DNA of 64,000 bases, from NCBI RefSeq assembly GCF_056746865.1, contig NZ_CM163382.1; one strand, given 5' to 3'. Positions 21,161-46,990 of the stretch are shown in pieces (position 1 is the stretch's first letter; each line of letters starts with the position of its first letter). A program made the translations under genes and the position numbers. The notes under the pieces are model-generated. The model was not told the origin of the DNA. It did no database searches and was given only the letters and a program-made list of their open reading frames with translations.

Positions 21161-21625
21161 CGACAACCGATGCCTGATGCGCCGCTGACGCGGCTTATCA
21201 GGCCTACGGGATGAACTGAACTGTAGGTCGGATAAGACGCATAGCGTCGCATCCGACAACCGATGCCTGATGCGCCGCTGACGCGGCTTATCAGGCCTAC
21301 GGGGTGAACTGAACTGTAGGTCGGATAAGACGCATAGCGTCGCATCCGACAACCGATGCCTGATGCGCCGCTGACGCGGCTTATCAGGCCTACGGGGCGT
21401 GCTGAACTGTAGGTCGGATAAGACGTATGGCGTCGCATCCGACAACCGATGCCTGATGCGCCGCTGACGCGACTTATCAGGCCTACGGGGTGAACTGAAC
21501 TGTAGGTCGGATAAGACGCATGGCGTCGCATCCGACAACCGATGCCTGATGCGACGCTGACGCGGCTTATCAGGCCTGCGGGGTGAACTGAACTGTAGGT
21601 CGGATAAGACGCATAGCGTCGCATC
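21161..21625. repeat. tandem array of five 93-bp units built from inverted REP palindromes (BIME-type)
   Basis: cgacaaccgatgcc recurs at 21161, 21254, 21347, 21440, 21533; spurious ORFs 20960..21790 and 21085..21624 show a 31-aa periodic peptide. Confidence 0.9.
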
Positions 21626-21671
21626 CGACAACAATCTCGACCCTACAAATGATAACAATGACGAGGACAAT

Positions 21672-24365: not shown

Positions 24366-26252
24366 ATGTCTTTTAGCGAATTTTATCAGCGTTCGATTAA
24401 CGAACCGGAGCAGTTCTGGGCCGAGCAGGCCCGGCGTATTGACTGGCAGACGCCCTTTACGCAAACGCTCGATCACAGCAATCCGCCGTTTGCCCGTTGG
24501 TTTTGTGAAGGCCGAACCAACTTGTGTCACAACGCTATCGACCGCTGGCTGGAGAAACAGCCAGAGGCGCTGGCGCTGATTGCCGTCTCTTCGGAAACAG
24601 AAGAAGAGTGCACCTTTACCTTCCGCCAGTTACATGACGAAGTGAATGCGGTGGCCTCAATGCTGCGCTCGCTGGGTGTGCAGCGCGGCGATCGGGTGCT
24701 GGTGTATATGCCGATGATTGCCGAAGCGCATATTACTCTGCTGGCTTGCGCGCGCATTGGCGCTATTCACTCGGTGGTGTTTGGGGGATTTGCCTCGCAC
24801 AGCGTGGCGGCGCGAATTGATGATGCTAAACCGGTGCTGATTGTCTCGGCTGATGCCGGAGCGCGCGGTGGCAAAATCATTCCCTATAAAAAATTGCTCG
24901 ACGATGCGATAAGTCAGGCGCAGCACCAGCCACGCCATGTTTTGCTGGTGGATCGCGGGCTGGCGAAAATGGCACGCGTCAGCGGGCGGGATGTCGATTT
25001 CGCGTCGTTGCGCCATCAACACATCGGCGCGCGGGTACCGGTGGCGTGGCTGGAATCCAACGAAACCTCCTGCATTCTCTACACCTCCGGCACGACCGGC
25101 AAACCTAAAGGCGTGCAGCGTGACGTTGGCGGATATGCGGTGGCGCTGGCGACCTCGATGGACACCATTTTTGGCGGCAAAGCGGGCGGTGTGTTCTTTT
25201 GTGCTTCGGATATCGGCTGGGTGGTGGGGCATTCGTATATCGTCTACGCGCCGCTGCTGGCGGGGATGGCGACTATCGTTTACGAAGGATTACCGACCTG
25301 GCCGGACTGCGGCGTGTGGTGGAAAATCGTCGAGAAATATCAGGTTAGCCGGATGTTCTCAGCGCCGACCGCCATTCGCGTGCTGAAAAAATTCCCTACC
25401 GCTGAAATTCGCAAACACGATCTCTCGTCGCTGGAAGTGCTCTATCTGGCGGGGGAGCCGCTGGACGAGCCGACCGCCAGTTGGGTGAGCAATACGCTGG
25501 ATGTGCCGGTCATCGACAACTACTGGCAGACCGAATCCGGCTGGCCGATTATGGCGATTGCTCGCGGTCTGGACGACAGGCCGACGCGTCTGGGAAGCCC
25601 CGGCGTGCCGATGTATGGCTATAACGTGCAGTTGCTTAATGAAGTCACCGGCGAACCGTGTGGCGTCAACGAGAAAGGGATGCTGGTGGTGGAAGGGCCA
25701 TTGCCGCCGGGGTGTATTCAGACCATTTGGGGCGACGACGACCGCTTTGTGAAGACGTACTGGTCGCTGTTTTCCCGTCCGGTGTACGCCACTTTTGACT
25801 GGGGTATCCGCGATGCTGACGGTTATCACTTTATTCTCGGGCGCACTGACGATGTGATTAACGTTGCCGGGCATCGGCTGGGGACGCGCGAGATTGAAGA
25901 GAGTATCTCCAGTCATCCGGGCGTTGCCGAAGTGGCGGTGGTTGGGGTGAAAGATGCGCTGAAAGGGCAGGTGGCGGTGGCGTTTGTCATTCCGAAAGAG
26001 AGCGACAGTCTGGAAGACCGAGACGTGGCGCACTCGCAAGAGAAGGCGATTATGGCGCTGGTGGACAGCCAGATTGGCAACTTTGGTCGCCCGGCGCACG
26101 TCTGGTTTGTCTCGCAATTGCCGAAAACGCGATCCGGAAAAATGCTGCGCCGCACGATCCAGGCGATTTGCGAAGGACGCGATCCTGGGGATCTGACGAC
26201 CATTGATGATCCTGCGTCGTTGGATCAGATCCGCCAGGCGATGGAAGAGTAA
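24366..26252 (+). CDS. prpE: propionyl-CoA synthetase
   Basis: ORF track 628 aa; AMP-binding motif YTSGTTGKPKG. Confidence 0.95.
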   Translation: MSFSEFYQRSINEPEQFWAEQARRIDWQTPFTQTLDHSNPPFARWFCEGRTNLCHNAIDRWLEKQPEALALIAVSSETEEECTFTFRQLHDEVNAVASMLRSLGVQRGDRVLVYMPMIAEAHITLLACARIGAIHSVVFGGFASHSVAARIDDAKPVLIVSADAGARGGKIIPYKKLLDDAISQAQHQPRHVLLVDRGLAKMARVSGRDVDFASLRHQHIGARVPVAWLESNETSCILYTSGTTGKPKGVQRDVGGYAVALATSMDTIFGGKAGGVFFCASDIGWVVGHSYIVYAPLLAGMATIVYEGLPTWPDCGVWWKIVEKYQVSRMFSAPTAIRVLKKFPTAEIRKHDLSSLEVLYLAGEPLDEPTASWVSNTLDVPVIDNYWQTESGWPIMAIARGLDDRPTRLGSPGVPMYGYNVQLLNEVTGEPCGVNEKGMLVVEGPLPPGCIQTIWGDDDRFVKTYWSLFSRPVYATFDWGIRDADGYHFILGRTDDVINVAGHRLGTREIEESISSHPGVAEVAVVGVKDALKGQVAVAFVIPKESDSLEDRDVAHSQEKAIMALVDSQIGNFGRPAHVWFVSQLPKTRSGKMLRRTIQAICEGRDPGDLTTIDDPASLDQIRQAMEE

Positions 26253-26278
26253 GGTATTGTCGGATGCGTCGTGTGGCG

Positions 26279-26994
26279 CATCCGACACCGTGCGCCGATG
26301 CCTGATGCGACGCTGACGCGTCTTATCATGCCTACAGGCCTGAACCGTAGGTCGGATAAGGCGCTCGCGCCGCATCCGACACCGTGCGCCGATGCCTGAT
26401 GCGACGCTGGCGCGTCTTATCATGCCTACAGGTCTGAACCGTAGGTCGGATAAGGCGCTCGCGCCGCATCCGACACCGTGCGCAGATGCCTGATACGACG
26501 CTGGCGCGTCTTATCATGCCTACAGGCCTGAACCGTAGGTCGGATAAGGCGCTCGCGCCGCATCCGACACCGTGCGCCGATGCCTGATGCGACGCTGGTG
26601 CGTCTTATCATGCCTACAGGCCTGAACCGTAGGTCGGATAAGGCGCTCGCGCCGCATCCGACACCGTGCGCAGATGCCTGATGCGACGCTGGTGCGTCTT
26701 ATCATGCCTACAGGCCTGAACCGTAGGTCGGATAAGGCGCTCGCGCCGCATCCGACACCGTGCGCAGATGCCTGATACGACGCTGGCGCGTCTTATCATG
26801 CCTACAGGCCTGAACCGTAGGTCGGATAAGGCGCTCGCGCCGCATCCGACACCGTGCGCAGATGCCTGATGCGACGCTGGTGCGTCTTATCATGCCTACA
26901 GGTCTGAACCGTAGGTCGGATAAGGCGCTCGCGTCGCATCCGACACCCCGCGCCGATGCCTGATGCGACGCTGACGCGTCTTATCAGGCCTACC
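26279..26994. repeat. tandem array of about 7.5 units of a 94-bp REP-pair repeat (BIME-type)
   Basis: catccgacacc recurs every 94 bp from 26279 to 26937; five identical-frame 61-aa spurious ORFs at 94-bp spacing in ORF track. Confidence 0.9.
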
Positions 26995-27070
26995 CACTAC
27001 CCACTGTTTTTACACCGATAATTTTTCCCCCACCTTTTTGCACTCATTCATATAAAAAATATATTTCCCC

Positions 27071-27086
27071 ACGAAAACGATTGCTT
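27071..27086 (+). promoter_or_regulatory. candidate PurR operator upstream of codB
   Basis: acgaaaacgattgctt matches 13/16 of recalled PurR box ACGCAAACGTTTTCTT. Confidence 0.4.
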
Positions 27087-27152
27087 TTTATCTTCAGATG
27101 AATAGAATGCGGCGAATTTTTTGGGTTTCAAACAGCAAAAAGGGGGAATTTC

Positions 27153-28412
27153 GTGTCGCAAGATAACAACTTTAGCCAGGGGCCAGTCCCGCAGTCGGCG
27201 CGGAAAGGGGTATTGGCATTGACGTTCGTCATGCTGGGATTAACCTTCTTTTCCGCCAGTATGTGGACCGGCGGCACTCTCGGAACCGGTCTTAGCTATC
27301 ATGATTTCTTCCTCGCAGTTCTCATCGGTAATCTTCTCCTCGGTATTTACACTTCATTTCTCGGTTACATTGGCGCAAAAACCGGCCTGACCACTCATCT
27401 TCTTGCTCGCTTCTCGTTTGGTGTTAAAGGCTCATGGCTGCCTTCACTGCTACTGGGCGGAACTCAGGTTGGCTGGTTTGGCGTCGGTGTGGCGATGTTT
27501 GCTATTCCGGTGGGTAAGGCAACCGGGCTGGATATTAATTTGCTGATTGCCGTTTCCGGTTTACTGATGACCGTCACCGTCTTTTTTGGCATTTCGGCGC
27601 TGACGGTTCTTTCGGTGATTGCGGTTCCGGCTATCGCCTGCCTGGGCGGTTATTCCGTGTGGCTGGCTGTTAACGGCATGGGCGGCCTGGACGCATTAAA
27701 AGCGGTCGTTCCCGCACAACCGTTAGATTTCAATGTCGCGCTGGCGCTGGTTGTGGGGTCATTTATCAGTGCGGGTACGCTCACCGCTGACTTTGTCCGG
27801 TTTGGTCGCAATGCCAAACTGGCGGTGCTGGTGGCGATGGTGGCCTTTTTCCTCGGCAACTCGTTGATGTTTATTTTCGGTGCAGCGGGCGCTGCGGCAC
27901 TGGGGATGGCGGATATCTCTGATGTGATGATTGCTCAGGGCCTGCTGCTGCCTGCGATTGTGGTGCTGGGGCTGAATATCTGGACCACCAACGATAACGC
28001 ACTCTATGCGTCGGGTTTAGGTTTCGCCAACATTACTGGTATGTCGAGCAAAACCCTTTCGGTGATTAACGGTATTATCGGTACGGTCTGCGCATTATGG
28101 CTGTATAACAATTTTGTCGGCTGGTTGACCTTCCTTTCGGCAGCTATTCCTCCGGTAGGTGGCGTGATCATTGCCGACTATCTGATGAACCGTCGCCGCT
28201 ATGAGCACTTTGCGACCACGCGTATGATGAGTGTCAATTGGGTGGCGATTCTGGCGGTCGCGCTGGGGATTGCCGCAGGCCACTGGTTACCGGGAATTGT
28301 TCCGGTCAACGCGGTATTAGGTGGCGCGCTGAGCTATCTGATCCTTAACCCGATTTTGAATCGTAAAACGACAGCAGCAATGACGCATGTGGAGGTTAAC
28401 AGTGTCGAATAA
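27153..28412 (+). CDS. codB: cytosine permease
   Basis: ORF track 419 aa, polytopic membrane protein; adjacent to codA. Confidence 0.95.
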
Positions 28413-29724: not shown

Positions 29725-29803
29725 GCCGGATGCGGCGTGAACGCCTTATCCGGCCTACGTAGAGCACTGAACTCGTAGGCCTGATAAGCGTAGCGCATCA
29801 GGC
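29725..29803. repeat. REP palindrome pair between codA and cynR
   Basis: gccggatgcggcgtgaacgccttatccggcctacg ... cgtaggcctgataagcgtagcgcatcaggc. Confidence 0.7.
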
Positions 29804-33873: not shown

Positions 33874-33897
33874 TGCGATCATTCCGTTATGATATGT

Positions 33898-33932
33898 TGG
33901 TCGGATAAGGCGCTCGCGCCGCATCCGACATT
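33898..33932. repeat. REP palindrome between lacY and lacA
   Basis: ggtcggataaggcgctcgcgccgcatccgaca. Confidence 0.6.

Positions 33933-46924: not shown

Positions 46925-46990
<66 letters not shown>

Follow-up and report, generated by a model that had tools for sequence, protein, structure and literature searches.

The 64,000-nucleotide stretch of DNA analysed here, hereafter the window, carries prpE and codB on the same strand, separated by a 900-bp spacer that runs from the prpE stop codon (TAA, 26250-26252) to the codB start codon (GTG, 27153). Gene names were taken from the PGAP annotation of genomes matching the window at 100% identity across 25253-27993. Tandem Repeats Finder detects a repeat of period 94 in this spacer, with 7.6 copies, 96% matches, 0% indels and a score of 1315 at 26277-26993, which bears out the original prediction, made from the sequence, of some 7.5 tandem 94-bp REP-pair units downstream of prpE: each unit does pair one z2-type with one y-type palindrome in inverted orientation. 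The array is wholly extragenic, being confined to this spacer, and together with a leading hairpin it measures 736 bp, or 82% of the spacer, most of which it had indeed been expected to fill. Since at least 40 complete and independent genomes of ST69-type strains contain the identical array, it is not an assembly artefact. The features of the locus are listed below, where naRNA4 matches are those of an Rfam scan described further on.

24366..26252, + strand: prpE (propionate--CoA ligase), the upstream gene; ORF, and PGAP annotation of a 100% identical genome
26258..26993, + strand: whole array, assigned to BIME-2 (leading degenerate hairpin, eight y and seven z2 REPs); Tandem Repeats Finder, unit register and REP census
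26258..26287, + strand: leading perfect hairpin, a degenerate z2 REP; inverted repeat, 100% complementary
26300..26335, + strand: y REP 1 (iREP orientation, CTAC at the 3' end); census, 1 mismatch to the y pattern
26347..26380, + strand: z2 REP 1 (GTAG at the 5' end); 0 mismatches, first hairpin of naRNA4 match 26350-26426
26394..26429, + strand: y REP 2; census, second hairpin of naRNA4 match 26350-26426
26441..26474, + strand: z2 REP 2; census, naRNA4 match 26444-26520
26488..26523, + strand: y REP 3 (GATACGAC variant, unit type C); census and unit typing
26535..26568, + strand: z2 REP 3; census, naRNA4 match 26538-26614
26582..26617, + strand: y REP 4; census
26629..26662, + strand: z2 REP 4; census, naRNA4 match 26632-26708
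26676..26711, + strand: y REP 5; census
26723..26756, + strand: z2 REP 5; census, naRNA4 match 26726-26802
26770..26805, + strand: y REP 6 (GATACGAC variant, second type C unit); census and unit typing
26817..26850, + strand: z2 REP 6; census, naRNA4 match 26820-26896
26864..26899, + strand: y REP 7; census
26911..26944, + strand: z2 REP 7 (C-to-T variant giving a G.U pair); census, naRNA4 match 26914-26990
26958..26993, + strand: terminal y REP 8, canonical sequence; census, 0 mismatches
26994..27152, + strand: unique AT-rich rest of the spacer, codB 5' region; sequence, promoter scan and allele comparison
27153..28412, + strand: codB (cytosine permease), the downstream gene; ORF and PGAP annotation

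Read on the prpE-sense strand, the unit consists of a z2-type REP and then an inverted y-type REP, each followed by an 11-nt linker. The z2 element (GTAGGTCGGATAAGGCGCTCGCGCCGCATCCGACA) and the y element (TGCCTGATGCGACGCTGGCGCGTCTTATCATGCCTAC) are both imperfect palindromes; GTAG marks the 5' end of the former and CTAC the 3' end of the latter. Of the two linkers (about 11 nt each), CCGTGCGCAGA and AGGCCTGAACC, the second follows the y REP and closes the unit. A pattern census found eight y and seven z2 REPs in a single orientation, which with the leading hairpin makes 16 palindromic units. The y matches had 0-2 mismatches to the y pattern, and the y REPs of the array show one mismatch when compared with the y REP query given in PMC11208160. 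On the + strand every z2 is preceded 5' by GTAG and every y ends 3' in CTAC, and the bulges of both stems are conserved (AA/GC in z2, C/T in y). Seven full units keep the 94-bp register, with variation confined to five columns and to column 94 of the seventh unit. Among the y REPs, the terminal one alone has the canonical foot, ATCAGGCC; in all the internal ones this is replaced by ATCATGCC, which gives a C.T mismatch.

The leading hairpin begins 6 nt past the prpE stop codon and has 11-bp arms (TGTCGGATGCG/CGCATCCGACA) around an 8-nt loop, made from the right arm of a z2 REP; its RNA folds at -25.1 kcal/mol (z = -5.2). In B2-type strains (E302, ST131-like) a full z2 REP begins inside the prpE stop codon, whose TAG is shared with GTAG. 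Stalling of terminating ribosomes has been reported for REPs that lie very near a stop codon. At the other end of the array, a 7-bp tandem duplication (CTACCCA twice, 26990-27003) spans the boundary of the last REP. The window, PSJ-42 and strain 10205 all have this duplication; K-12, O157:H7 and others have a single copy of the motif. Inserts fall into length subclasses of 72/78 bp and 729/736 bp because CTACCCA is either single or duplicated. Beyond it, the promoter scan places a promoter-like site at 27037-27065 within the AT-rich codB 5' region. Isolated z2-like REP matches occur elsewhere in the window, at 29725-29758 (- strand), 33896-33929 (+ strand) and 46943-46976 (- strand), for instance just after codA.

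A second array occupies the prpB-prpC spacer (21161-21632; period 93, 5.1 copies in Tandem Repeats Finder). The two arrays had been called related but distinct, and so they are: the consensus unit of the second is 77% identical to the prpE-codB unit, with indels in both linkers. It is likewise an array of the BIME-2 type, with z2 and y REPs, in the prp operon, and differs from the prpE-codB array by its linkers and by compensatory stem changes. Both arrays match the Rfam model of naRNA4 (RF02564; gathering threshold 59.5 bits), which represents one z2+y pair of REP325, a 12-hairpin array between yjdM and yjdN in K-12 (PMC4550694). The prpE-codB array gives seven + strand hits of 70.6-72.4 bits, with all minus-strand hits below threshold, and the prpB-prpC array gives the sole other hits above threshold in the 64-kb window, four in number; the Rfam scan of the window found no other RNA family. 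Since the prpB-prpC array also matches, the naRNA4 model recognises BIME-2 pairs generally. A dedicated small RNA gene was considered and rejected, the hits being read as recognition of BIME-2 sequence only.

The repeat also accounts for five minus-strand ORFs of 61 amino acids whose starts lie 94 bp apart. The original prediction was right to ascribe these ORFs to the array and wrong to describe them as sharing one frame: what they share is a register within the unit, and their frames rotate through all three because 94 = 3x31+1. That they encode real small proteins has virtually no likelihood. All five start with ATG, are equally long and have almost the same sequence; but they sit in rotating frames, each reading through about two repeat units, have no Pfam match and no PGAP annotation in identical genomes, lie antisense to both flanking genes and are gone in alleles with fewer units. 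Coding potential was rejected for the 61-aa and 42-aa ORFs alike (no Pfam match, no PGAP annotation, rotating frames). The array thus breeds spurious ORFs and repeated naRNA4 'gene' hits, which annotators should not over-interpret. Elsewhere in the window, yahN (LysE family transporter, about 17230-17901, minus strand) is a pseudogene with an internal stop in a 100% identical ST69 genome.

Folded as a single transcript, the whole array reaches -403 kcal/mol (z = -11.8), with a minimum free energy structure dominated by pairing between y and z2. Hairpins that join a y to a z2 REP fold at -40.1 and -43.3 kcal/mol, compared with -14.8 for y and -18.8 for z2 folded separately (sum -33.6). On thermodynamic grounds, and given its use in the whole-array structure, the mobile or structural unit could be a y:z2 doublet forming one long REPIN-like hairpin rather than two REP hairpins. 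Covariation speaks otherwise. Over an alignment of 32 distinct z2-linker-y segments, drawn from the two arrays of the window, from REP325 and from six further strains, the two-hairpin model has 96.4% of cells paired, against 23-46% with partners slid; compensatory double changes occur in three pairs (nine cells), and none of 500 shuffles reaches its covariation score. The doublet model has one double change only and a covariation score that all 500 shuffles reach, thus nothing above the shuffles on the 32-unit alignment, and local hairpins are moreover favoured by co-transcriptional folding. We regard the doublet as an unlikely unit. Since covariation supports the two-hairpin model and not the doublet, the separate REP hairpins are, as judged from this alignment, the conserved structure, the independent compensatory events being few (three).

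Array length was compared across strains with a query made of the flanks only: 5,230 of 5,426 complete E. coli genomes matched, and the length between the flanks was read off. Two rank-spread samples were pooled into a set of 115 genomes, in which extra units were counted as 94-bp units beyond the shortest allele, itself composed of the leading hairpin and one y REP (insert of about 72 bp). Insert lengths in this sample fall into classes about 94 bp apart (72, 166, 260, 350, 541 and 730 bp), and the genomes are distributed as follows.

0 extra units: 34 of 115 genomes (30%), BL21-type strains
1 extra unit: 52 of 115 genomes, K-12
2 extra units: 12 of 115 genomes
3 extra units: 1 of 115 genomes
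5 extra units: 2 of 115 genomes
7 extra units: 9 of 115 genomes, window type and O157:H7
locus interrupted by IS621: 5 of 115 genomes

A hotspot of length polymorphism had been anticipated at this site, along with a comparison of unit counts among E. coli genomes as the means to reveal it. Both ideas proved sound: the number of extra units in the 115 genomes is 0, 1, 2, 3, 5 or 7, unless IS621 interrupts the locus, and array length varies from lineage to lineage as well as within the set of strains whose flanks are identical. In O157:H7 the array likewise has seven extra units, but it differs from that of the window at about 40 positions, which implies that these two long arrays have had separate histories. 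The five-unit array of FDAARGOS_946 corresponds to the O157:H7 array minus two internal units. In strain 10035776-3, the flanks are about 1.8% different from those of the window and the array (window 26088-26933) differs by 1 base over about 850 bp; this strain shares the window-specific head variant, and its right end has a deletion into the unique spacer. Such a pattern suggests that its array region was imported by recombination.

Variation within a lineage was followed in the best 60 matching genomes, each of which agrees with the window at 100% across a 2001-bp flank query. The 736-bp insert of the window is found in 43 of the 60 and a 454-bp insert (three units fewer) in 14; one genome has 548 bp (two units fewer) and another 830 bp (one unit more), the counts of extra units among identical-flank strains being 4, 5, 7 and 8. 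The one remaining genome, NZ_CM135151.1, was first taken as a +1 allele and then discarded as scrambled: its array contains truncated units and has flank sequence embedded inside, probably through misassembly of the tandem repeat. With one public record scrambled here, the array is a trap for assemblers. Typing of the units by their SNP pattern gives the following strings.

Window: ABCDECF (reference string)
SCAID WND2-2021: ABCDEECF (E duplicated)
PK8275: ABCDF (EC deleted)
WP7-S17-ESBL-01: ABCD plus a recombinant last unit (three units lost)

The last unit of WP7-S17-ESBL-01 is internal-type in its left half and terminal-type in its right half, with a crossover between columns 20 and 40. All internal y REPs at the prpE-codB locus, in every strain examined, carry the same private ATCATGCC. 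As the unit sequences indicate, a single locus-specific unit has been amplified in place, and length then changes by whole units, in register. Recombination or slippage between 94-bp direct repeats would produce such gains and losses of whole units, the simplest mechanism being presumably RecA-type unequal exchange or replication slippage.

An enzymatic route deserves consideration as a minor possibility, in which copy number would be changed not by recombination or slippage but by the REP-associated tyrosine transposase TnpA-REP (RAYT), which would cut iREPs at CT dinucleotides and rejoin them there. TnpA-REP binds REPs that have a 5' GTAG and a stem mismatch, cleaves C^T sites in the iREP and linker, performs strand exchange between BIMEs in vitro, and has been proposed to act in BIME-2 copy-number variation (PMC3333891); GTAG, CTAC and stem mismatches are all retained by the units of the array. 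However, direct repeats of 94 bp at 96-100% identity suffice for RecA-dependent or slippage events, the position of the WP7-S17-ESBL-01 crossover, between columns 20 and 40, fits homologous exchange, there is no RAYT gene within the window, and RAYT-dependent amplification in vivo was not found in the literature covered. Homologous exchange or slippage is the mechanism we favour.

Binding of IHF or gyrase to the array had also been put forward in the original prediction. The IHF part does not hold: a search of the whole spacer (26253-27152) for the consensus WATCAANNNNTTR, tolerating up to one mismatch, found nothing, and 11-nt linkers cannot accommodate the L motif, which is where IHF binds in BIME-1. 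Certain REP clusters do bind IHF, but the sites are those of BIME-1, single-copy z1 + y elements whose long L linker often contains an IHF site (PMC3333891). It is scarcely credible that the prpE-codB array, multi-copy and made of z2 and y, is an IHF-binding element of this kind (BIME-1, RIP/RIB). As for gyrase, the BIME-2 elements of K-12 are significantly enriched in its cleavage sites. These lie mostly in y, which is cut far more than z2; loops and mismatches of the stem are the places of cleavage, which does not depend on transcription (PMC6379681). By analogy, the y REPs of the array are likely to be preferred gyrase cleavage sites at the DNA level.

The y REPs are also relevant to IS621, an IS110-family element with a bridge-RNA recombinase, whose target is known (PMC11208160). 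Within the array the exact target, ATCAGGCCTAC, is found only in the terminal y REP (26983-26993), the seven internal y REPs reading ATCATGCCTAC, with one mismatch to it. In five of the 115 genomes (about 4%) IS621 sits in the terminal y REP of the array, and its insertion point is directly after ...TTATCAGGCCT (as seen in two of the extracted loci, around positions 1080-1180 and 2340-2400 of their own sequences). The y REPs of the prpB-prpC array keep the canonical ATCAGGCCTAC and provide four exact targets, at 21197, 21290, 21383 and 21476; a further exact target lies on the reverse strand at 29775. In strain 10205 the last y REP reads CTTATCAGTATCTACCCAC in place of CTTATCAGGCCTACCCAC, and its TATCT is that of the IS621 right-end junction ...AACAGTATCT|ACCCAC seen in two IS621-carrying loci. 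This y REP end looks like the scar of an imprecise loss of IS621.

Turning to the transcript, the array would, by analogy with other REP arrays, be transcribed as the 3' UTR of the prpBCDE mRNA. Its series of REP hairpins may block 3'-to-5' decay of the prpE mRNA, as a local and dose-tolerant element, and may attenuate read-through into codBA. An AT-rich region of their own (26994-27152) precedes the codBA genes. The closest precedent is REP325, which makes the mRNA of the upstream gene, yjdM, more stable and attenuates transcription of yjdN by about 8-10-fold, partly through Rho, with a ladder of hairpin-ended RNAs (bioRxiv 10.64898/2026.03.23.713779). REP effects are nonetheless strongly context-dependent, and terminal REPs do not generally lengthen mRNA half-life (Harris et al., bioRxiv 10.64898/2026.03.23.713779). 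Protection of the 3' end of the prpBCDE mRNA, together with limitation of read-through into codBA, is by this analogy the most likely function of the array. An intrinsic terminator scan found no terminator-like site on the + strand of 26100-27300; the nearest T5 run begins 14 nt after the last REP, which does not correspond to an intrinsic terminator. Nor, with C 241 and G 224, does the array have the C>G skew that typically marks a Rho utilisation site. Sigma-70-like matches (CTGATA-16-TATCAT, 9/12 of the consensus) occur at 26490-26517 and 26772-26799, in type C units only; they are created by one G-to-A variant in the y stem and were set aside as probably meaningless.

A more ambitious role would make the array a source of naRNA4-like RNAs which, with HU, bridge cruciform DNA and condense the chromosome, as has been proposed for REP325 in the original nucleoid model (PMC4550694). 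Seven units score above the Rfam naRNA4 threshold on the prpE-sense strand, and naRNA4, a 77-nt RNA, is bound by HU at a Kd of about 32 nM (bioRxiv 10.64898/2026.03.23.713779). The same preprint, which has one author (Adhya) in common with the original naRNA4 paper (PMC4550694), reports however that nucleoid volume is unchanged by REP325 deletion or overexpression, that a stable HU-cruciform-naRNA4 complex does not form, and that REP-REP contacts are absent from Hi-C and not HU-dependent (bioRxiv 10.64898/2026.03.23.713779). Here, moreover, the Rfam model matches any z2+y pair and hence indicates BIME-2 sequence rather than function, and alleles without a complete z2+y unit are common. We consider such a role very unlikely for the prpE-codB array, and protection of the mRNA end remains our preferred reading.

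The allele series also has a bearing on whether the number of units matters. Exact copy number is probably near neutral, since natural alleles span 2 to 18 hairpins, and a large array must be dispensable because two-hairpin alleles are common (30% of the sample). One may still conceive of unit number as a heritable and rapidly mutable 'dial', its gains and losses serving contingency-locus-like regulation as opposed to neutral drift, although this seems to us improbable. Were it true, ST69 and O157:H7 (seven extra units) would differ from K-12 (one) and BL21-type strains (none), and lineages would differ in prpE mRNA stability, in the insulation of codBA from propionate-induced read-through and in local gyrase loading. 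Beyond this question, the array is a real VNTR that changes within a clone-level lineage and could serve as a fine typing marker. With 16-18 hairpins it offers a longer natural series than the REP325 model, and natural alleles with 0, 1, 2, 3, 4, 5, 7 and 8 extra units are ready-made for tests of REP number, addressing 3'-end stability, read-through and gyrase loading. Its importance for basic biology is small, this kind of element being already known.

Taken together, we hold with considerable confidence that the prpE-codB locus contains a BIME-2 cluster that was amplified in place, changes length in register and has a function best assigned by analogy. BIME-2 elements combine z2 and y REPs in inverted orientation with short linkers, in tandem copies that are alike within a locus and whose number varies between strains (PMC3333891). 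The array displays all the sequence-level features of this class: inverted alternation of y and z2 palindromes, GTAG and CTAC, short linkers without the long L motif, tandem copies conserved within the locus, strain-variable copy number, conserved mismatches and an extragenic position. Because of this complete agreement, the array is, as far as sequence can tell, a BIME-2 cluster, a known kind of E. coli element, unusually long here (16 hairpins). The call of z2 rather than z1 rests on architecture and on likeness to the z2 of REP325, to which the z2 of the array is 86% identical, with two of the five differences forming a compensatory pair and a loop of CTCG here versus TTTA in REP325. BIME-2 arrays and their strain-to-strain copy-number variation have already been described, and a BIME-2 is also present at the prpE-codB locus in K-12.

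Among other repeat classes, a CRISPR array was rejected: the sequences between palindromes are constant 11-nt linkers, and it is the whole 94-bp unit that repeats. BIME-1 or RIP elements share REP palindromes with the array, including the y REP, whereas the array is multi-copy, made of z2 and y, has 11-nt linkers and lacks an IHF consensus, which places it outside BIME-1. REP325, whose sequence we fetched for comparison (period 100, 5.8 copies), is much closer. Both have the z2-linker-y-linker unit in the same orientation to the upstream gene and lie between two same-strand genes, and their units are 78% identical. They differ in period (94 instead of 100 bp, owing to a shorter second linker), in copies (7.6 versus 5.8), in the z2 element (one compensatory pair and the loop) and in setting, the prpE-codB array lying between two operons and REP325 inside one, so that the analogy is imperfect. 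Compared with BIME-2 elements as a class, the array has a peculiarity of its own, the private ATCATGCC of its internal y REPs with a C.T mismatch at the stem foot, but nothing categorical sets it apart: this allele has 16 palindromic units and that of a sister strain 18, while annotated K-12 REP elements hold 1-12 units (Harris et al., bioRxiv 10.64898/2026.03.23.713779).
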